DNA of 64,000 nucleotides from Gemmatimonadales bacterium (lineage in GTDB: Bacteria > Gemmatimonadota > Gemmatimonadetes > Gemmatimonadales > GWC2-71-9): the NCBI GenBank assembly GCA_035703525.1, contig DASSYA010000017.1, forward strand, positions 171,304-235,303, read 5' to 3'. Each line of letters opens with the position of its first letter. The stretch's first letter is position 1. A program made the position numbers and the translations under genes. This document shows positions 2,777 to 51,581 of this stretch, piece by piece. A model generated the notes under the pieces. That model saw only the letters and a list, made by a program, of their open reading frames with translations, was not told the DNA's origin and searched no databases.

Positions 2777-2883
2777 ACGAGAAGTGAGAAGTGAGAAGTG
2801 AGAACGTCGAAGGCCGGCATCTGTTCCTGATGCCGGCCTTCTGCAGTCCGAGGACTTCTCACTTCTCACTTCTCACTTTTCCC
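2777..2883. repeat. heptad-repeat palindromic element 1: ACGAGAA+GTGAGAAx3, central GC hairpin, then TTCTCACx3+TTTTCCC
   Basis: Read directly and cross-checked against the translation of track ORF 2791..3042. Left array is 2777-2804 and right array 2856-2883. The arms are reverse complements and sit between the acnA stop (2774-2776) and the convergent sigma stop (2886-2888). Confidence 0.9.
2809..2841. terminator. bidirectional intrinsic-terminator-like hairpin
   Basis: Perfect 13-bp stem GAAGGCCGGCATC / GATGCCGGCCTTC with a 7-nt loop TGTTCCT, between two convergent stop codons. It is flanked by pyrimidine/T-containing heptads on both transcribed strands. Confidence 0.6.
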
Positions 2884-2885
2884 CG

Positions 2886-6986: not shown

Positions 6987-9494
6987 ATGGCCACTCGACC
7001 AGCGCGTCCATCGATCCACAAGTTCGGGGGTGCCGCGCTCAAGGACGCGGGGTCCATGCTGGCCGTGACCCGGATCCTGGCCGAGCAGCCCACCCCACAG
7101 ATCGTCGTGGTCTCCGCGCTCGCCGGGGTCACGGATGCGTTGCTCGATCTGATCGCGGTCGCTGAATCGGGCGACCAGTCGGGTGCCGTCGGGCGAGCGG
7201 ATGCATTCCGCGCTCGTCACGAATCCTTCCTCGCCGCCCTGCTCCCGGCCACCCGCCGGGCGCCGATCCAGGCCGCGATCACCGAGATGAGTGACGAGCT
7301 CGTCGGATTGGCGCGGGCGCTGGCGGTCCTCCGGGAGGCATCGCCGCGGCTCCGGGATCATATCGTGGCCCGGGGCGAGCGGTTGAGCGCCCTGCTGCTT
7401 GCCGGTGCGTTGAGTCGCGCTCGCCAACCGGCCGAAGCGGTCGACCCTGGCGCGGTGATCATCACTGACGGCCCCCATGGCGGCGCCGCCCCGGTGGTCG
7501 ACGCGACCAGACGCGCGGCCCGGGCCACGCTTGAGCCGATGCTCGCTCGCGGAGTGACGCCGGTGATCCCGGGATTCCTGGGCCGCGCGCCGGGCGGTGG
7601 TCTCGCCACCCTTGGACGCGGTGGTTCCGATCTGACGGCGACGTCGCTCGGTCGGGCGATGACGTCACCCCAGGTCACCCTCTGGAAGGATGTCCCGGGC
7701 CTGCTCACGGCCGACCCGCGGATCGTCCCGGATGCCCGGCTCCTCGAGTTGGTGCACCCCACCGAAGCCGCCGAGCTCGCCTATTACGGCGCCAACGTCC
7801 TGCACCCGCGGGCGCTGCTTCCGCTTGCGGGCACCCGGACGGCGCTCCGCGTCCGTCCCTTCGGTGATCCGACCGCACCGGGGACCGAGATCAGTGCACG
7901 GCGAGAGAGCGCCCCGCCCCCGGTACGCTCGTTGTCGGCCGTGCGCGACCAGGCGCTGGTCACGGTGTCGGGCTCGGGCATCCTTGGTGTGCCGGGCATG
8001 TCGGCCCGCACGTTCGGCGCGCTTCAGGCGGCCGACATTTCCGTCTCACTGATCGCCCAGGCCTCGTCGGAGTACACGATCGACTTCACGGTGCCCGACG
8101 AGGTCGCGGAGCATGCCGTGGAGGTCCTGCATCGTGCCTTCCGCGCGGAGATTGCCCACGGGGAGCTCGAGGCGGTCCGGACACGGCGTGGGGTCGCGAT
8201 CCTGGCGGTGGTCGGGCTCCGGATGGCCGGGCATCCGGGCATCGCCGCCCGCGTCTTCGAGGCGCTCGAGCTGGCCGAGGTGAACGTGGTGGCGATCGCC
8301 CAGGGGTCGTCGGAGCACAACATCTCGATCGTGGTGGACACCGGCGCGGTCCCGGCCGGTCTTCGCCGCATCCATGCCGCGTTCCAGCTCGGCAAGGAGG
8401 GGGGGGGACGCCCGCGGCGGCGGACCGGCAAGGATGTGGTGTTGCTGGGCGCCGGGACCATCGGACGGGCGACCCTCGAGATGCTCGCGGCCGCCCCGGC
8501 ACGGTTCGGGATGCTGCGCGTGGTGGCGGTGGTCGATCGGACGGGGATGGTCGCGGATGCGGGCGGCTTCGACCCGGTGGCCCTGCGCGCGATTGCGGCG
8601 TGCAAGCGGGCTGGGGGGGGGGTCGCCGGTCTCCCGGGCGGGGTGCGCGGCACGCCGGCGGCGGTCCTCGCCACCCTGGCCCAGCAGGCGCTGATCCGTC
8701 CCGTGATCGCGGACCTCACCGCGGATGACAGCACGGCACTGCTCACGATGGTGGCGCGCGCCGGATTCGATGTGGTGCTCGCCAACAAACGGCCGGTCGC
8801 GGGGCCGTGGACCGAGTACCGGGCACTCCGCGATGCCTTGGCCGCCCACGGGGGCCGACTCCGTCACGAGGCGACGGTGGGCGCCGGGCTGCCCCTCGTG
8901 CTGGCGGTGGACCAGTTGCTGCGCACGGGCGACCGGGTGCACCGGCTCGAGGGCGTGCTCTCGGGGACCCTGGCCGCAGTGCTGACCAGCCTTGAGGATG
9001 GGGTCCCCTTCTCCGAGGCCGTCCTGGCGGCCGAGTCCGCCGGGATGACCGAACCGGATCCGCGCGACGACCTGCACGGCACCGACGTGGCCCGCAAGGC
9101 GCTCATTCTCGCCCGCATGCTCGGACAGCATCGCGAACTCCATGAGGTCGCGACCGAATCCCTCGTGCGCGGCACGGGAGGCGGTACCATGGCAGCCTGG
9201 CGGAAGACGCTTGCCCGGGATGATGCCTGGTGGCAGGCGCGCGTGGTCAGGGCCCGCGACAAGGGGAAGGTGTTGCGATACGTCGCCTCGATCACGGCCA
9301 GCAAGACCGAGGTGGGCCTCCACGAGGTCCCTCACGACCATCCGCTCGGTCAACTGCGCGGTCCGTCGAACCGGTTGGTGATCACCTCGGACCGCTACCA
9401 CGCGCATCCACTGGTGATCACCGGTCCCGGGGCCGGTCCGGAGGTCACGGCGACCGGCGTCGTGGCGGACCTCCTCTCCCTGACGGGCGCATGA
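6987..9494 (+). CDS. thrA: bifunctional aspartate kinase / homoserine dehydrogenase
   Basis: 835 aa. N-terminal amino-acid kinase domain (IHKFGGAALKDAGS), ACT-like middle region, and C-terminal homoserine dehydrogenase (EATVGAGLPLV). Followed by thrB and thrC with ATGA overlaps. Confidence 0.92.
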   Translation: MATRPARPSIHKFGGAALKDAGSMLAVTRILAEQPTPQIVVVSALAGVTDALLDLIAVAESGDQSGAVGRADAFRARHESFLAALLPATRRAPIQAAITEMSDELVGLARALAVLREASPRLRDHIVARGERLSALLLAGALSRARQPAEAVDPGAVIITDGPHGGAAPVVDATRRAARATLEPMLARGVTPVIPGFLGRAPGGGLATLGRGGSDLTATSLGRAMTSPQVTLWKDVPGLLTADPRIVPDARLLELVHPTEAAELAYYGANVLHPRALLPLAGTRTALRVRPFGDPTAPGTEISARRESAPPPVRSLSAVRDQALVTVSGSGILGVPGMSARTFGALQAADISVSLIAQASSEYTIDFTVPDEVAEHAVEVLHRAFRAEIAHGELEAVRTRRGVAILAVVGLRMAGHPGIAARVFEALELAEVNVVAIAQGSSEHNISIVVDTGAVPAGLRRIHAAFQLGKEGGGRPRRRTGKDVVLLGAGTIGRATLEMLAAAPARFGMLRVVAVVDRTGMVADAGGFDPVALRAIAACKRAGGGVAGLPGGVRGTPAAVLATLAQQALIRPVIADLTADDSTALLTMVARAGFDVVLANKRPVAGPWTEYRALRDALAAHGGRLRHEATVGAGLPLVLAVDQLLRTGDRVHRLEGVLSGTLAAVLTSLEDGVPFSEAVLAAESAGMTEPDPRDDLHGTDVARKALILARMLGQHRELHEVATESLVRGTGGGTMAAWRKTLARDDAWWQARVVRARDKGKVLRYVASITASKTEVGLHEVPHDHPLGQLRGPSNRLVITSDRYHAHPLVITGPGAGPEVTATGVVADLLSLTGA

Positions 9495-19724: not shown

Positions 19725-19856
19725 CAGGGGCGACCGCATTCAGGGGCGACCGCATTCAGGGGCGACCGTCAGGTCGCCCTCTGGATCATTGTAACAGGAA
19801 TCAGGCCCGACCGTGTTCAGGGGCGACCGCATTCAGGGGCGACCGTCAGGTCGCCC
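19725..19856. repeat. duplicated block of 16-nt direct repeats (CAGGGGCGACCGCATT) ending in hairpin GGGCGACC-GTCA-GGTCGCCC; 77-bp period
   Basis: Block A is 19725-19780 (16-mers at 19725, 19741 and 19757; hairpin at 19760-19779). Block B is 19802-19857 (16-mers at 19802 [degenerate], 19818 and 19834; hairpin at 19837-19856). Cross-checked against the translation of track ORF 19697..21148. Confidence 0.9.
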
Positions 19857-19879
19857 TCCGTATCCATGGCGGGATCCGG

Positions 19880-21115
19880 TCATTGGTCGTGCCGCACGAC
19901 CTGACGGTCGTGCCTGAAACATCGGTCATTGATCGTGCCAGAACGCCCCAACCCCGCCTCGATATCGGCCACGAGATCCTCGGCCGACTCGATCCCCACC
20001 GACAGCCGAAGCAACGAATCACTGATGCCCGCGAACGTGCGAGCCTCCGCGTCCATCGACGCGTGCGTCATGGTTGCCGGATGCGCCACCAGCGATTCGA
20101 CACCACCCAGCGACTCGGCCAACGTGAAGCATCGGAGTCCATCCAGGAAGTGCCGCACCGCGAGTTCCCCGCCCCGCAACTCGAACGAAACCATCGCCCC
20201 AAATCCGAGCTGCTGCCGGGCAGCGATCTCGTGACCGGGATGGCTCCGGAGTCCGGGATACCAGACGCGCTCGACGGCGGGATGCGCGCCCAGCGCGGCG
20301 ACCACCTCGACGGCGTTCTCCTCGTGGATCCTGGTGCGCGCGTGCAGCGTACGGATGCCGCGGAGCGTGAGGTAGCTGTCGAACGGCGCACCGGTCACAC
20401 CCAGGCAGTTGGCCCACCAGCCGAGCTCCTCGACCAGCGAGGCATCGCGGGCCACGACCGCGCCGCCCACCACGTCGCTGTGCCCATTGAGATACTTGGT
20501 CGTCGAATGCACGACGATGTCGGCACCGTGCTCGAGCGGTCGCTGCCACGCGGGCGACAGGAAGGTGTTGTCTGCCACAACCAGCGCACGGAGCGCATGA
20601 GCTTTCGCCGCAACCGCGCCGATGTCGGTGATCCTGAGCAACGGATTGCTCGGTGTCTCGATCCAGACCAGCCGCGGGCTTCGAGTGGCATCTCCGACTT
20701 CCGACTCCCGACTTCCGATTCCCTCCCCCGCGCCCCACGCACCGAGATCGACGAACTCCACGTCGAACAACCCCCGTCGACTGAGGTGCGTCAGCAGCCG
20801 ATGGGTGCCGCCGTAGCAATCGTGGGTGGCCAGGATCAGGTCACCCGGACGAACCAGCTGCAGCACCGTGGTGATCGCCGACATCCCGCTGCTCGTGATG
20901 ACGCCCCCACTCGCACCCTCGAGCTCCGCGATGGCTGCACCGAGCAGATCCCGCGTCGGGTTGCCCGAGCGCGTGTAGTCGTACGGTCGCTTGACACCGA
21001 ACCCTTCGAACGAGAAGGTCGACGAGAGATGGATCGGCGGGACCACCGCCCCGTGCTCGCGGTCGGAGCAGATGCCGGCACGGACGGCGTTGGTGACGCG
21101 GGGCTCACGCGGCAT
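19880..21115 (-). CDS. metB: cystathionine gamma-synthase / O-acylhomoserine-utilising PLP enzyme (MetB/MetZ family)
   Basis: Collinear with E. coli MetB as I remember it, with PLP-Lys motif [12 protein letters not shown] and C-terminal [12 protein letters not shown] 21115 overlaps the end of metX. MetB versus MetZ cannot be decided from sequence alone. Confidence 0.8.
20694..20721. repeat. intragenic heptad array CCGACTT-CCGACTC-CCGACTT-CCGATTC inside metB
   Basis: Coordinates derived codon by codon from the metB ORF. On the minus strand it is translated as [10 protein letters not shown]. Confidence 0.85.
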
Positions 21116-22016
21116 GGCGCACCTCGCTTTCGAGCGCGCGGTGGATGAACGCGCCGACCGACTCGACTTCCTTGAGGAAGCCATCGTGCCCGTAGATCGA
21201 TGACACGAGCTCGAGACGACATGCCGCAGTGCACTTCCGGGCCAGCTCCTCGAGCTGCCACGCCGGGACCAGCGTGTCCTCGTGGAAGCCGAGCAGGTCG
21301 AGCGGCACGGTGATCGCCGACGGGTCGACCTCGTGCAGGTCGAGTGATTCCGAGAGGGTCAGGTAGCGATCCGGCTCCCAGGTGGCGGCGAACCGCTGGC
21401 TGCCGTGATCGAGATAGCCTTCAACCGGGAATGCTCCCGAGGCCGTATCGCGCCCCGACTCGAATCGGGCCGCGAACTCCTCGGCCGTCCGGTAGGTGGT
21501 CATGCCGAGGGCACGGGCGAGTGCCACACCCTCGGTGGGGAGGCCGGCGGCGAGTCCGAGCCGGATGATCCGCCGCTGGATGACGCGGTGCGCCGTCGCC
21601 ATCGGATGGGTCTGATGCGCCGCCGCGATCACGACGAGGCGACCGACGCGCGTCGGATGACGTGCGGCGAACGCGAGCGCCACCATCCCGCCGTACGACG
21701 CGCCGACGATCGCATGGACCGCCTCACCGCCGAGCTCATCGAGGACGGTCGCGAGCTGATCGGCCTGATCGGTGGTCGTGACCGGTGCTCCGTCGGTGTG
21801 CCAGTCGATGCCGAGCACGCGCTGGCGTCTGGTGTCGACGGCGAGACCGGGACCGACGATGCCGTCCCACCAACCGGGCTGCGGATTGCTCTCGGTCTGG
21901 CAGAGATGGCGATGGGCGGAGATCCCGCCGAGCACCACCACGAGAGGGGCGTGCGGCGGGCCGGTGAGTTCCCAGGTCAGTGGTGTCGTGGGCGTGCGGG
22001 CAGTCGTGAGGGACAT
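21105..22016 (-). CDS. metX: homoserine O-acyltransferase (MetX family, short form)
   Basis: Alpha/beta hydrolase with MetX signatures PGWWDGIVGPGLAVDT, nucleophile elbow GASYGGM and C-terminal GHDGFLKE. Lies directly upstream of metB. Confidence 0.8.
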   Translation of the reverse strand: MSLTTARTPTTPLTWELTGPPHAPLVVVLGGISAHRHLCQTESNPQPGWWDGIVGPGLAVDTRRQRVLGIDWHTDGAPVTTTDQADQLATVLDELGGEAVHAIVGASYGGMVALAFAARHPTRVGRLVVIAAAHQTHPMATAHRVIQRRIIRLGLAAGLPTEGVALARALGMTTYRTAEEFAARFESGRDTASGAFPVEGYLDHGSQRFAATWEPDRYLTLSESLDLHEVDPSAITVPLDLLGFHEDTLVPAWQLEELARKCTAACRLELVSSIYGHDGFLKEVESVGAFIHRALESEVRHAA

Positions 22017-22110
22017 CGTGCGTCTCCGGCGGGTGAATGTTGCTCCACGACTCCCGGGCGGAAACGACGAACGCCCGGCGGCACGTGAAGGCCGCCAGGC
22101 GAGATACGCA
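22017..22110 (-). promoter_or_regulatory. structured 5' leader of metX-metB (candidate riboswitch/attenuator, class unknown)
   Basis: The minus-strand leader contains mutually exclusive helices: GCCTGGCGGC/GCCGCCGGGC versus CCGGGCG/CGCCCGG. The 5' segment GTGCGT..TCTC is complementary to the SD-start region GGAGACGCAC. Confidence 0.35.
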
Positions 22111-22139
22111 CTTTTAGCAGTTGTTTAACGTGGTTGCAA
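22111..22139 (-). promoter_or_regulatory. candidate sigma-70-type promoter of metX (TTGCAA-N17-TAAAAG on minus strand)
   Basis: The only AT-rich patch in this intergenic region. Hexamers lie at 22139..22134 and 22116..22111 with exactly 17-nt spacing. Confidence 0.45.
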
Positions 22140-22213
22140 GCAGCGGCAAATGACCACGGACTCCTTCGATTGTGACCGGAGGATAGATCCGGGGTTGGGC
22201 GTGGTCAAGGGAG

Positions 22214-22241
22214 GGATCGGACGTCGGAGGTCGGACGGCAG
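22214..22241. repeat. heptad array GGATCGG-ACGTCGG-AGGTCGG-ACGGCAG (left arm)
   Basis: Read directly and cross-checked with track ORF 22150..22794. It is complementary to the array at 22803-22837, with a 12-nt perfect core GTCGGAGGTCGG. Confidence 0.75.
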
Positions 22242-22309
22242 CTGCGTGGCCAGACGGTTCGGATCCAGGTCACCTATGATTCCCCGGCACCCCGTTCACG
22301 GAGCGGACC

Positions 22310-22783
22310 ATGATCCCCAGTCTCCCCACCCCTCTCGCCCCATGGGAACGGCGACTGATCCACGCCGCCTATCTCTTCGGGCTGGTGGTGGTCGGCCGCG
22401 TGGCAGCCGGCATCCTGAAGTGGATGCCGCCGGCCAGCGTCCTGATCGCACTCCAGCTCCTCGCCGCGGCAGGGGGCGTGATGTTCGTCTATCTCAGATG
22501 GTCTGCGCGTGGTCGAGCGGGTGCCCCACCGGCGTGGTTCGTGACACACGTCCTCTGGTTGATGATGTCGTTCCTCTATACCGTGGCCTGGGCGATCGGG
22601 ACGGCGGTATTCCTCTTCGGAGCCGTGGTGGTGGTCGCGACATTCCGCTCGCTCGCGGCACTGGCGGTGTATGGCCCGATCCTGGTGGCAGCCTTGATCG
22701 CGCTCTGGTTCATCTATCGAATGGTGCGGGGGTACCTGGATTACCTGCGAGAGTACCCGGCGGCGGAGATGTTGCCGCGCTGA
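22310..22783 (+). CDS. small integral membrane protein (4 predicted TM helices), function unknown
   Basis: The hydrophobic segment pattern is clear. GGAG lies 6 nt before ATG 22310. The alternative-frame 214-aa ORF (22150..22794) is Arg/Pro/Gly-rich and is rejected. Confidence 0.6.
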
Positions 22784-22802
22784 CGCCCGCGTAGATGCCG
22801 CC

Positions 22803-22837
22803 CCGACTTCCGACCGCCGACCTCCGACCGCCGACCT
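22803..22837. repeat. heptad array CCGACTT-CCGACCG-CCGACCT-CCGACCG-CCGACCT (right arm)
   Basis: Coordinates derived from the translation of track ORF 22274..22927 (...[13 protein letters not shown]...). It lies between the membrane-protein stop and the ettA start. Confidence 0.85.
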
Positions 22838-22856
22838 CCCGTTATCTTCCGCCCCC

Positions 22857-24533
22857 ATGGCCGGCGAATACATCTTCACGATGCGGGACCTCCGGAAGGT
22901 CGTCCCGCCCCAGCGCGAGATCCTCAAGGGGATCCACCTTTCCTTCTACCCGGGCGCCAAGATCGGCGTGATCGGGTCGAACGGCAGCGGCAAGTCGTCG
23001 CTCCTCAAGATCATGGCCGGAGTCGACACCGACTTCCTGGGCGAGGCGAAGCCGCTGGCGGGCACCCGGATCGGGTACCTCCCGCAGGAGCCGGTACTCG
23101 ATCCGACCAAGGATGTCCGCGGCAACGTCGAGGAGGCGCTCGCCCCCATCCGGGCGCTGCTCACCGAGTTCGAGGAGATCTCCGCGAAGTTCGCGGAACC
23201 GATGAGCGACGACGAGATGAACGCGCTGCTCGAGAAACAGGGCGCCGTGCAGGATCGGATTGACCAGGCCAACGCCTGGGAGATCGACCACACGCTCGAC
23301 ATGGCGATGGACGCCCTCCGGCTGCCGCCGGGCGATGCCGATGTCTCGACCCTCTCTGGCGGCGAAAAGCGGCGGGTGGCGCTTTGCCGGTTGTTGCTTG
23401 CCAAGCCCGAGATGCTGCTCCTCGACGAGCCGACCAATCACCTCGACGCCGAATCGGTGGCATGGCTCGAACGGTATCTGCAGGAGTTCACCGGCACCGT
23501 GGTGGCGATCACCCATGACCGCTACTTCCTCGACAACGCCGCGCAGTGGATCCTCGAGCTCGATCGGGGCGAGGGGATGCCGTACAAGGGCAACTACTCG
23601 AGCTGGCTCGACCAGAAGCAGCAGCGTCTCGCCACCGAGGAGAAGCAGGCCAGCGCTCGGCAACGCAACCTCCAACGCGAGTTGGAGTGGGTACGGCTGT
23701 CGGCGCGTGGCCGGCAGGCCAAGAGCAAGGCGCGCATCAACGCCTACGAGTCGCTGGTCGCGGCAGAGGAAAAGGCCGACAACCAGGGACACGAGATCCT
23801 GATCCCGCCGGCGCCGCGTCTGGGCGACGAAGTGGTGGTCGCCAAGAAGCTCGCCAAGGCGTACGGCGACAAGCTGCTGTTCGACAACCTCGAGTTCTCG
23901 CTGCCGCGTGGCGGCATCGTGGGCGTGATCGGTCCGAACGGCGCCGGCAAGACGACACTCTTCCGGATGATCGTGGGCCAGGAGACGCCCGACAGCGGCG
24001 AACTGGTGGTCGGTCAGACGGTGATCCCCTCGTATGTCGACCAGTCGCGCGAAGCGCTCGATCCGGAAAAGACGGTGTATCAGGAGATCGCCGGCGACTA
24101 CGACAACCTGCAGTTCGGCACCCGGACCGTGAACTCACGCGCCTATTGCGGGTGGTTCGGGTTCAAGGGCTCGGACCAGCAGAAGAAGGTCGGGACGATG
24201 TCGGGCGGCGAGCGCAATCGACTCCACCTCGCGAAGCTGCTCAAGACGGGTGGCAACCTGCTGATGCTCGACGAACCGACCAACGATCTGGACGTCGACA
24301 CCCTTCGCGCCCTCGAGGACGCGCTGCTGACCTTCTCGGGCTGCGCGGTGGTGATCTCGCACGATCGCTGGTTCCTCGACCGGATCGCGACGCACATCCT
24401 CGCGTTCGAGGGCGATTCGGAGACGGTCTGGTTCGAGGGGAACTATCAGGACTATTCCGCGGACTACAAGCGCCGGAAGGGCGTCGCGGTCGACCAGCCG
24501 CACCGGATCAAGTACCGGAAGCTGCCGACCTGA
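22857..24533 (+). CDS. ettA: energy-dependent translational throttle protein EttA (ABC-F ATPase)
   Basis: 558 aa with two ABC cassettes: Walker [10 protein letters not shown] and GPNGAGKTT, signatures LSGGEKRR and MSGGERNR. The N-terminus [18 protein letters not shown] is typical of EttA. Confidence 0.93.
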
Positions 24534-24536
24534 TAC

Positions 24537-24689
24537 GTGAGAAGCGAGAAGCGAGAAGTGAGAAGCGAGAAGTGAGAAGCGAGAAGTGAGACGCAGGAAC
24601 TCGGACGTCCACAGCGGATGGGTGTCGCAGCATCCGGAGCTTCTCGCTTCTCGCTTCTCGCTTCTCGCTTCTCACTTCTCGCTTCTCAC
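24537..24689. repeat. heptad-repeat palindromic element 2: (GYGAGAA)x8, 48-nt spacer, (TTCTCRC)x7
   Basis: Left array is 24537-24592 and right array 24641-24689. Cross-checked with track ORF 23546..24589 (...REKREARSEKREVRSEK*). It starts 3 nt after the ettA stop. Confidence 0.9.
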
Positions 24690-50291: not shown

Positions 50292-50312
50292 GGCGTCTCC
50301 GGGCATTGGCTT

Positions 50313-50546
50313 ACGAGAAACGAGAAGCGAGAAGCGAGAAGCGAGAAACGAGAAACGAGAAACGAGAAGCGAGAGACGAGACGAGACGAGAAACGAGAAA
50401 CGGGAGACGGGAGACGAGAGACGGGAGACGGGAGACGGGAGACGGGAGACGCGAGCAAGGTAATGGAACGTGTTTGGAGACAGGCGTCACGCTTCTCGCT
50501 TCTCACTTCTCATTTCTCGCTTCTCGCTTCTCGCTTCTCGCTTCTC
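50313..50546. repeat. heptad-repeat palindromic element 3 (expanded, asymmetric): 19 heptads + 2 pentamers, AT-richer spacer, 8 heptads
   Basis: Left array is 50313-50455 (ACGAGAA/GCGAGAA, then ACGGGAG variants). Right array is 50491-50546 (GCTTCTC/ACTTCTC/ATTTCTC). Verified against the translation of track ORF 50306..50572. The right array runs into the TAA stop (50550-50552) of the upstream minus-strand gene. Confidence 0.92.
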
Positions 50547-50549
50547 GCT

Positions 50550-51581
50550 TTACAGCCCTGCCCGCACAATAATCCGATACGACAGCTCCCACGGCGTCCC
50601 GAAGAACGCCTCGCTCTGTTCACTGTCGATCCGATGGAATCGCACTTCGGTGTCGAACGAGACGCCCGTGCTGGCGTCGCCGAAGCGGCGCCATGCACCG
50701 AGTTCGGTGTACCGGCGCTCGGCACGGTAGACGCCCGGCGTATGCCCCACGGAGCCGTAGTTGGCATCCCCGGCGGCGGCCGCGAAGTCCTGACCTCGCC
50801 AATGGATCACGAAGAGCGCCCAGAGTGGCCACGGATTCACCTCACCACGAAGCCATGTCCCCGACCCGCCGCGCGGTTGGTCGGTCGGGTAGGCCGGGTC
50901 GAGGTGCCCGTCGCTCCAGAGTCTCGCCGCCTGGACGCTGCCGTGCCGGACGATCGGGAGCGAACCTGACAAGGTCGCACCGAGTGCCGTGACGCGGTTG
51001 TTGGTCACCGGGACACCGGCATCGAACAACTGCCCGCCGTGATGCGACCAGAGGTGTTGGGCGTCGATGCTGAGGCCGCGCACCGGACGAACGCGTGCAA
51101 CGATGCCCATCTCGAACGCCTCACGCTGCGCCGGTGTATTCAGTCGCTGCCAGTTGATCCACGCCTCGGCGTCGAGCCGTTCGCGGCGTTCGCGCCACTG
51201 CAGGCCATACTCGATCGGCGTCGTGAGCTCGCGTGTGCTGACCATCAGTGGGTCAATGAGGCCGTGTCGACGCGTGTTCTCGAGGGTGCCGATCACACCC
51301 AGGGAATGCGGGGTCGTGTAGCGGGCGGCGAGGATCGGCTTGAGCGAGTCGGTGAACTCCTCGCTGCCCCAGCGACGGTCGGCGAAGACGCCCAGGCGGA
51401 GCGCCAGGTGACCGGTCGCCTGCCCGGAGATCCAGCCCTGCACCTGTCCACCGAGAATCGTCTCGCCGACACGGTACGGGGTGAAGAATTCGGTGTTGTC
51501 GCCGTAGAGCGTGGCGCGGAGCTGCCAGTCGATCCGCTGTGCGCCGAGGATGGGGCACGCGAGGGCCAGCAGGAGGATCAC
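50550..51581 (-). CDS. hypothetical secreted protein
   Basis: The only in-frame start near the hydrophobic N-terminus is GTG 51581 (M-ILLLALACPILGAQ). No family recognised. The start is uncertain. Confidence 0.4.
   Translation of the reverse strand: MILLLALACPILGAQRIDWQLRATLYGDNTEFFTPYRVGETILGGQVQGWISGQATGHLALRLGVFADRRWGSEEFTDSLKPILAARYTTPHSLGVIGTLENTRRHGLIDPLMVSTRELTTPIEYGLQWRERRERLDAEAWINWQRLNTPAQREAFEMGIVARVRPVRGLSIDAQHLWSHHGGQLFDAGVPVTNNRVTALGATLSGSLPIVRHGSVQAARLWSDGHLDPAYPTDQPRGGSGTWLRGEVNPWPLWALFVIHWRGQDFAAAAGDANYGSVGHTPGVYRAERRYTELGAWRRFGDASTGVSFDTEVRFHRIDSEQSEAFFGTPWELSYRIIVRAGL

Follow-up and report, generated by a model that had tools for sequence, protein, structure and literature searches.

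The 64-kb window analyzed here, the whole 64,000-nucleotide stretch of a Gemmatimonadales contig, raises the question of how a tandem heptanucleotide repeat of the kind that usually lies between genes came to be read in frame inside metB, which encodes a cystathionine gamma-synthase (CGS), and whether its presence there makes the gene a switch. The reading that we favor, and regard as probable, is that the metB array is a fixed, translated heptanucleotide simple sequence repeat (SSR) of intergenic type, lodged in an insertion-tolerant loop of the enzyme as a stable relic rather than a switch. By itself the array is of modest interest; the pattern around it across the clade offers more.

Read directly from the window, positions 20694-20721 of the plus strand are CCGACTT CCGACTC CCGACTT CCGATTC, as a first-pass annotation had reported, and Tandem Repeats Finder likewise recovers an array at 20693-20722 (period 7, 4.4 copies, 87% matches). 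These are the four best units of an array that, with its decayed end units, comprises five units and 35 nt and reads GGGAATC GGAAGTC GGGAGTC GGAAGTC GGAGATG on the coding strand, for a consensus of GGRARTC. The sense strand of the region is GGGGCGCGGGGGAGGGAATCGGAAGTCGGG. The units run head to tail in the number (about four or more) that is typical of heptameric long SSRs; perfect 7-periodicity extends over at most 14 nt, or two units. The array is in frame and encodes the core of a 13-aa peptide, residues 153-165 of a 434-aa open reading frame (ORF). Pattern CCGAYYYCCGAYYY matches the window three times versus 0.18 expected, a count that 0 of 100 shuffles reach, and pattern CCGACNNCCGAC matches seven times versus 1.2 expected, always within the metB array or the arrays at 22217-22237 and 22803-22839.

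The protein that carries this peptide has the family hidden Markov model match, the pyridoxal phosphate (PLP)-lysine motif, and the fold of MetB. Specifically, it scores 544 bits against NCBIfam TIGR02080 (curated cutoff 504.55) and matches the Xanthomonas CGS 6ld9 at E = 5e-154 and the E. coli MetB 1cs1 at E = 2.7e-134; its reading frame is unbroken, and every residue that is invariant in the family is present, with K230 as the PLP lysine. Foldseek places its AlphaFold model on the Xanthomonas CGS 6ld7 with a target-normalised template modeling (TM) score of 0.89-0.90 and 64% identity, and a metagenomic protein of 411 aa, P0001, is 100% identical to it. In the HMMER alignment, a 9-aa gap opens in the loop versus both 6ld9 and 1cs1. 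Between FVD and LVLVESPSNP, E. coli MetB (1cs1) has 16 aa and the window protein 25, exactly the spacing that the first-pass annotation had given. The extra stretch of roughly 27 nt, which it saw as coinciding with the array, is real: compared with the MetB family, 27 nt (9 aa) have been added in frame. As a length baseline, we used 80 loci from GTDB species genomes, with the YGG(T/S)...E(T/S)PSNP segment readable in 75 (Gemmatimonadota, many Gammaproteobacteria, and others); it measures 49 aa in 73 of them and 47 and 51 aa in the remaining two, versus 58 in the window. The nearest relative among them, L001, is only 74% identical, and these loci served for length rather than for recent history. 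In the AlphaFold model (mean predicted local distance difference test score, pLDDT, 78.9), residues 153-171 are coil between a helix (147-152) and a strand (172-176), and pLDDT falls below 50 at residues 156-161; the loop is thus modeled as a 9-aa longer, Gly/Ser/Glu-rich, unstructured segment that connects the FVD strand to a second strand, and the catalytic core is intact.

Both the period and the unit of the metB array are those of intergenic heptad arrays, which bears out the intergenic type that had been proposed for it. A scan of the window for s[i] = s[i+p] periodicity at several periods p returned nine segments of period 7 and zero or one each for periods 5, 6, 8, 10, and 11, so that 7 is the sole enriched repeat period in the window, an over-representation that is itself a mark of heptameric SSRs. 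Eight of the nine segments are intergenic and adjoin stop or start codons, the metB array being the one inside a gene; no further decayed arrays were found within genes of the window, also at relaxed thresholds. As is usual for heptameric SSRs, the window arrays are mostly intergenic and near ORF ends, and often in inverted pairs (2775-2884, 24531-24689, 50311-50554, and the arrays around a 157-aa ORF, orf157). Long intergenic hairpins built of heptads, (GAGAAGY)n...(RCTTCTC)n and (ACGAGAA/GAGACGG)n...(CGCTTCT)n, occupy the first three of these places; they begin at stop codons or a few bases away, and the one at 2775-2884 encloses a GC-rich terminator-like stem-loop. The related array that had been placed at 22803-22837 is present, extends to 22839, and shares both its orientation and its CCGAC core with the metB array; the one at 22217-22237 adjoins the -35 box of a promoter-like site. 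Further, the unit of the metB array recurs in two metagenomic relatives, L081 (2462-2489, 4271-4307, and 4872-4900) and L082 (391-429). Across the relatives' loci L081-L088, 14 heptad segments were counted in 75 kb, whereas the GTDB Gemmatimonadota loci (123 kb) and the other loci (533 kb) yielded 2 each; heptad arrays are a trait of the sub-lineage of the window.

The loop itself is a recurrent site of insertion. Among the 120 closest homologues, the segment has its standard 49 aa in 87 and 56-132 aa in 20 (that is, +7 to +83 aa), and this loop is the only non-terminal site with insertions of at least 3 aa. A second clade carries other inserts in the same loop (Table 1), and standard-length sequences separate it from the clade of the window in a neighbor-joining tree; inserts must therefore have been gained independently two or more times. 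In L085, L086, and L087 of this second clade, complete heptad hairpins are translated in frame, with RNA fold z scores of -4.1, -5.4, and -6.7, respectively. Because the unit differs between close relatives, the arrays of the second clade either turn over fast or are replaced. The largest insert, that of P0036, could possibly represent two copies of an element resembling repetitive extragenic palindromes (REP) or miniature inverted-repeat transposable elements (MITE). Judged from these sequences, the repeated entry of intergenic-type repeats into the MetB loop of related genomes is supported.

Within the clade of the window, the history of the array is one of substitution rather than of changing length. 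DNA was obtained for eleven metagenomic relatives, and their loop sequences were compared. The 58-aa segment is common to the window (with P0001), L081, L210, and L082, which span 86-100% protein identity, and its units are progressively decayed by point substitution: L081 (94% identity) reads AATCGG AAGTCGG AAGTCGG AGGTCGG, while L082 and L210 (86-88% identity) retain five decayed units, for example GGAAGTT GGAAGTG GGAAATT GGACGTT GGTGTCG. Further members of clade A, L083/P0005 and L209, keep only a remnant of one to two units; in L083 and P0005 the loop is exactly 21 nt (three units) shorter than that of the window, and L209 reads GGTCGAAGTCGGAGTTGG, about two units. This frame-preserving step of 21 nt is the sole indel of the array seen in the clade. 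The metB array has thus been length-stable over substantial divergence while decaying by substitution. No cluster members of the closest proteins differ in length; a search among metagenome contigs for versions of the array with exact flanks and another copy number gave 0 matches and likewise left the known L081 sequence unmatched, and is hence uninformative.

That such an array can persist in a coding sequence depends in part on its unit. Because 7 and 3 share no factor, a heptad array passes through all three frames in turn; AAGTCGG then reads KSEVGSR and its complement PTSDFRL, stop-free in both orientations. GAGAAGT, among the commonest intergenic units of the window, contains TGA. About half of all heptamers are stop-free in both orientations, and the requirement is a weak filter, yet a necessary one. 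We therefore envisage the following history for the favored reading. In a Gemmatimonadales lineage rich in 7-nt arrays, usually just outside coding regions and often as inverted pairs forming long hairpins, one heptad array would have grown from about two to five units in metB, by slippage or perhaps by copying from nearby arrays with a shared unit. Its landing site would be the one MetB loop that tolerates insertions, where an AAGTCGG unit free of stops in every frame could survive and where only three-unit (21-nt) changes would preserve the frame. At present the array is decaying by point mutation, and we assign it no switching function. Some points weigh against this account. The metB array of the window has no inverted partner, unlike most of the window's intergenic arrays. 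The 21-nt step may have been a contraction as well as an expansion, its direction being unsettled because the neighbor-joining tree places the 51-aa forms (P0005/6) inside the 58-aa group. Finally, it is from conservation that we infer that the enzyme works with its insert, which would be neutral for enzyme function. A hairpin formed with an inverted partner at the metB array was considered and ruled out by its fold (z = +1.8), the array being a single arm.

Table 1. Features of the window, and inserts in the MetB loop of other members of the family.
Feature	Position	Strand	Basis or description
Heptad array in metB, 5 units	20689-20723	-	Sequence, Tandem Repeats Finder, pattern counts
metB, cystathionine gamma-synthase / O-succinylhomoserine (thiol)-lyase	19880-21115	-	TIGR02080, 6ld9, P0001, 6ld7
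metX, homoserine O-succinyltransferase, first gene of metX-metB operon	21105-22016	-	NF006449, 341.8 bits (cutoff 296)
SAM-II (SAM_alpha) riboswitch in metX leader	22094-22167	-	RF00521, 40.9 bits (gathering score 36)
Promoter-like site for metX-metB: TTGACC, 17 nt, TATCCT	22180-22208	-	Consensus match only
Heptad array TCGGACG TCGGAGG TCGGACG	22217-22237	+	CCGAC-core family, inverted relative to metB array
orf157, 157-aa ORF	22310-22783	+	Between inverted heptad arrays
Heptad array CCGACTT CCGACCG CCGACCT CCGACCG CCGACCT	22803-22839	+	Between orf157 stop and ABC-F gene start
Period-7 scan segment in the preceding array	22809-22839		
Heptad pair (GAGAAGT)n / (ACTTCTC)n	2775-2807 / 2851-2884		Around GC hairpin, between convergent genes
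Heptad pair	24531-24591 / 24636-24689		Directly after ABC-F stop codon
Heptad segments, two adjoining, and partner	50311-50457 / 50484-50554		
L085 MetB-loop insert			(GAGACGY)4-loop-(ACGTCTC)4; second clade
L087 MetB-loop insert			(GGAGGAY)4 ... (ATCCTCC)n; second clade
L086 MetB-loop insert			(GCGAGGR)4 ... (YCCTCGC)n; second clade
L088 MetB-loop insert			Imperfect GAGAGAGAAGCGAAC palindrome; second clade
L084 MetB-loop insert	L084 2503-2721		150 nt, in frame, with palindromic stretch (GTCATTCCGAGCGCAGCGGCCCGAAGGGCCGCGGAGTCGAGGAATCC) of REP- or MITE-like look; second clade
P0036 MetB-loop insert			+83 aa, in frame, motif SLHSRLRRSVGMTG twice; known from protein alone; second clade

The neighborhood of metB bears on where its array came from. 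In L081 (4284-4899), a 615-bp segment carrying orf157 (window 22213-22827) is inverted between two colinear flanks; the heptad arrays can therefore serve as recombination substrates, recombination between the inverted arrays having flipped the cassette. The product of orf157 has no match in Pfam or NCBIfam. The cassette is oriented in L082 as in the window and is absent from L083, L086, and L088, and the heptad arm upstream of orf157 measures about 120 nt in L081 versus 21 nt in the window. Further, the first codons of metX are themselves in-frame heptad arrays in L085 (3452-3490, units CGTCTCG/A), L086 (5091-5124, CCCTCGC), and L088 (5098-5127, ATCTCGY), where the unit family is that of the metB loop of the same genome in complementary orientation; the CCGACTT array next to the promoter has the corresponding role in the window and L081. 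Four unit families co-vary in this way between sites 1.3-1.6 kb apart (CCGACTT/AAGTCGG, CGTCTCR/GAGACGY, CCCTCGC/GCGAGGG, and ATCTCGY/GCGAGAA). This co-variation suggests local copying between arrays, so that, for the metB array, seeding from a neighboring array would be no less likely than slippage in situ alone. A further step is one that we entertain tentatively and with some doubt: heptad arrays of this clade may actively spread to nearby arrays through template switching or gene conversion, with the MetB loop as a recurrent landing site. Both the co-variation of units and the flipping of the orf157 cassette between genomes 94% identical in MetB fit this idea. If true, the arrays would form a recombinogenic system of repeats that renews itself and reshapes protein loops as well as gene order.

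Other explanations of the metB array can be weighed against the same evidence. Contingency SSR loci, as in Haemophilus and Neisseria, have long perfect tracts whose copy number varies among near-identical strains and lie in surface or restriction-modification genes. Were metB such a phase-variation locus, slippage by one unit would frameshift it and produce reversible methionine auxotrophy, or the array would be a fragile site. The metB array resembles these loci in having a unit that is not a multiple of 3 within an expressed gene, where a gain or loss of 7 nt would, as seen in the sequence, shift the frame; 7-bp repeats do occur among the phase-variable SSR loci of Haemophilus influenzae (PMC2651432), and arrays of the same family as that in metB do change length, as the upstream arm of orf157 illustrates. 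However, it is unlike them in every defining respect. It has four to five imperfect units and no long perfect tract, the four relatives at 86-100% identity are equal in length while gathering point changes, and the only indel seen is in frame; neither strain copy-number variation nor variation by other than multiples of 3 was found among the relatives, and frameshifted alleles were not seen among them, the one direct variant scan being uninformative. Its host, moreover, is no surface, virulence, or restriction-modification gene but one with a housekeeping role, under the control of a SAM-II riboswitch. Nothing points to one-unit slips at a rate that would be of use, and we regard a contingency locus as very improbable. 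The first-pass annotation had proposed that a repeat expanded or inserted in frame inside a biosynthetic gene and made it a potential contingency or fragility site; the addition, the frame, and the unit all stand, whereas contingency and fragility are not supported, given the imperfect units, the conserved length, an indel of 21 nt alone, and the housekeeping host. It is similarly implausible that the loop is an ordinary lineage-specific Gly/Ser/Glu extension, 7-periodic by chance and unrelated to the intergenic arrays. Surface loops often acquire low-complexity residues, and the metB array is short, but selection at the peptide level is not expected to give a period of 7, and this reading is largely refuted by the significance of the pattern versus shuffles, by a unit identical to that of arrays 1.5-2.1 kb away and of the relatives' intergenic arrays, and by the unmistakable heptad hairpins at the equal site in relatives.

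A role for the array as nucleic acid deserves somewhat more attention, although we judge it unlikely. In this explanation, the G-rich array and a G-run upstream of it would form a G-quadruplex (G4) or a protein-binding array that tunes metB translation, or the array would pair or recombine with its neighbors of the same unit. The sense strand is G-rich (GGGGCGCGGGGGAGGGAATCGGAAGTCGGG), and (GGGAATC)n repeats of Xanthomonas fold into G-quadruplexes in vitro (PMC4692102); further, the metB-loop array matches an array near the 5' end of metX in four unit families, and the inverted arrays around orf157 have recombined. Nevertheless, GGG is kept in only two of the five metB units, and a G4 there would need one loop of 11 nt. 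The decay of the L082 and L210 units without change in length argues against a constraint at the sequence level, and RNA folding of the loop region of the window gives z = +1.8, that is, no stable local structure. The array at 22217-22237 is upstream of the predicted -35 box and is probably outside the metX-metB mRNA. Long-range pairing of the metB array with 22217-22237 within that mRNA was rejected as a candidate, since 22217-22237 is upstream of both the SAM-II riboswitch and the predicted promoter.

The translated relic that we favor is a further case of known heptameric repeats with intragenic copies and of in-frame palindromes, as in Xanthomonas, Nostoc, and Rickettsia. As summarized in PMC4679880, Mrazek et al. 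(2007) described long SSRs with units of 5-11 nt, found the heptameric class to be the most abundant of these in many prokaryotes, and proposed polymerase slippage as its origin. Xanthomonas genomes contain about 186 GGGAATC arrays each; 89-93% of these lie between genes, for the most part no more than 50 bp from an ORF end, whereas 7-11% overlap ORFs (32% for GGGGAYT in Nostoc); about 70 form convergent inverted pairs, and length varies between species (Rehm et al. 2015, PMC4692102). The arrays studied here share with these heptamers tandem 7-nt units, typically in about four or more copies, a specific over-representation of period 7, mostly intergenic positions tens of bases from ORF ends, frequent convergent inverted pairs or stem-loops, variation of length and sequence between close relatives, and a minority of copies within ORFs; the first metB unit is literally GGGAATC. 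In contrast to Xanthomonas and Nostoc, the host is a member of the Gemmatimonadales, a single genome combines several unit families (GAGAAGY, GAGACGG, and GGAAGTC), most units lack the GGG required for a G-quadruplex, and the metB copy lies deep in a conserved enzyme instead of at an ORF end, with relatives that translate full hairpins.

Rickettsia palindromic elements (RPEs) are introduced in PMC10969869 as the classic in-frame repeat elements. As with RPEs, intergenic-type repeat DNA is found here in frame in a housekeeping gene, translated, and tolerated where the fold allows, and it persists and decays over evolutionary time. The hairpin inserts of L085-L087 and the 150-nt insert of L084 closely resemble RPEs. 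The insert of the window shares with them its place in a conserved gene; unlike the inserts of L085-L087, it forms no hairpin (z = +1.8), and whereas RPEs are dispersed, about 100-150 bp long, and share a conserved sequence within the family, it has 27 nt, one arm, and 7-nt units that differ between loci and genomes. Another parallel is offered by the cyanobacterial heptamers known as short tandemly repeated repetitive (STRR) sequences, reportedly described by Mazel et al. in 1990, for which our literature search turned up only papers that use STRR for fingerprinting. Intergenic TAACTGA heptamer direct repeats occur in marine Beggiatoaceae and cyanobacteria (PMC4679880). Like the arrays reported here, TAACTGA and STRR repeats are heptamer direct repeats near start codons in several phyla, with occasional ORF-internal copies translated in a stop-free orientation; TAACTGA repeats differ in having one dominant unit per genome, in being almost never inverted (1 indirect repeat in 170 sets), and in the translational role proposed for them. 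Our searches found no literature on heptanucleotide repeats or repetitive elements in Gemmatimonadetes/Gemmatimonadota, and no description of a clade-wide concentration in one enzyme loop with complete heptad hairpins translated.

The unit of the metB array also extends well beyond this lineage. Perfect (AAGTCGG)4 was found in at least 120 metagenome contigs, of which 80 loci (L089-L168) were analyzed, and because their G+C content spans 0.33-0.75, (AAGTCGG)n arrays are present in several phyla. The array has a flank of fewer than 50 stop-free codons on at least one side, whatever the frame, at 52 of the 80 loci, which places it there between genes or at a gene end, while in 14 at least 100 stop-free codons flank it on both sides. 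Two of the 14 have Pfam domains on both sides, namely a HypF (L089, YrdC and Kae1-like domains) and an Fe-S flavoprotein (L114), and apparent in-frame cases also occur in L099, L121, L163, and L164.

With regard to the operon, the mechanically called metB ORF spans 19880-21184, but its homologues begin at the residue equivalent to M24 (ATG at 21113-21115). Because the identical metagenomic protein has 411 aa, the true start is probably M24, and the 434-aa ORF is probably over-extended at 21116-21184; with this start, metB and the end of metX share 11 nt, an overlap that relatives show too. The placement of a SAM-II riboswitch before metX is an observation in its own right for a Gemmatimonadales genome. 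At the other end of metB, 16-nt tandem repeats (CAGGGGCGACCGCATT) lie 3' of the gene, each closing in a GGGCGACC-GTCA-GGTCGCCC hairpin (window 19725-19858 and 19880-19943), and L081 has five further copies of the final 40-64 nt or so of the ORF, one at 7250-7368 and four at 7904-8126. Repeats may likewise have given rise to the unusual C-terminal tail of MetB.

These results have consequences at several levels. For metagenome annotation, translated repeats inflate apparent protein novelty, as with KSEVGSR/PTSDFRL and the hairpin-derived peptides. For the CGS fold, they reveal one natural insertion-tolerant loop that accepts +7 to +83 aa, which is of use in protein engineering. The local co-variation of units and the array-bounded inversion of orf157 together offer a tractable route to the origin and spread of heptamers. 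Finally, the phenomenon of translated intergenic repeats, known from the RPEs of Rickettsia, extends by way of heptanucleotide arrays to a free-living phylum of soils and sediments.

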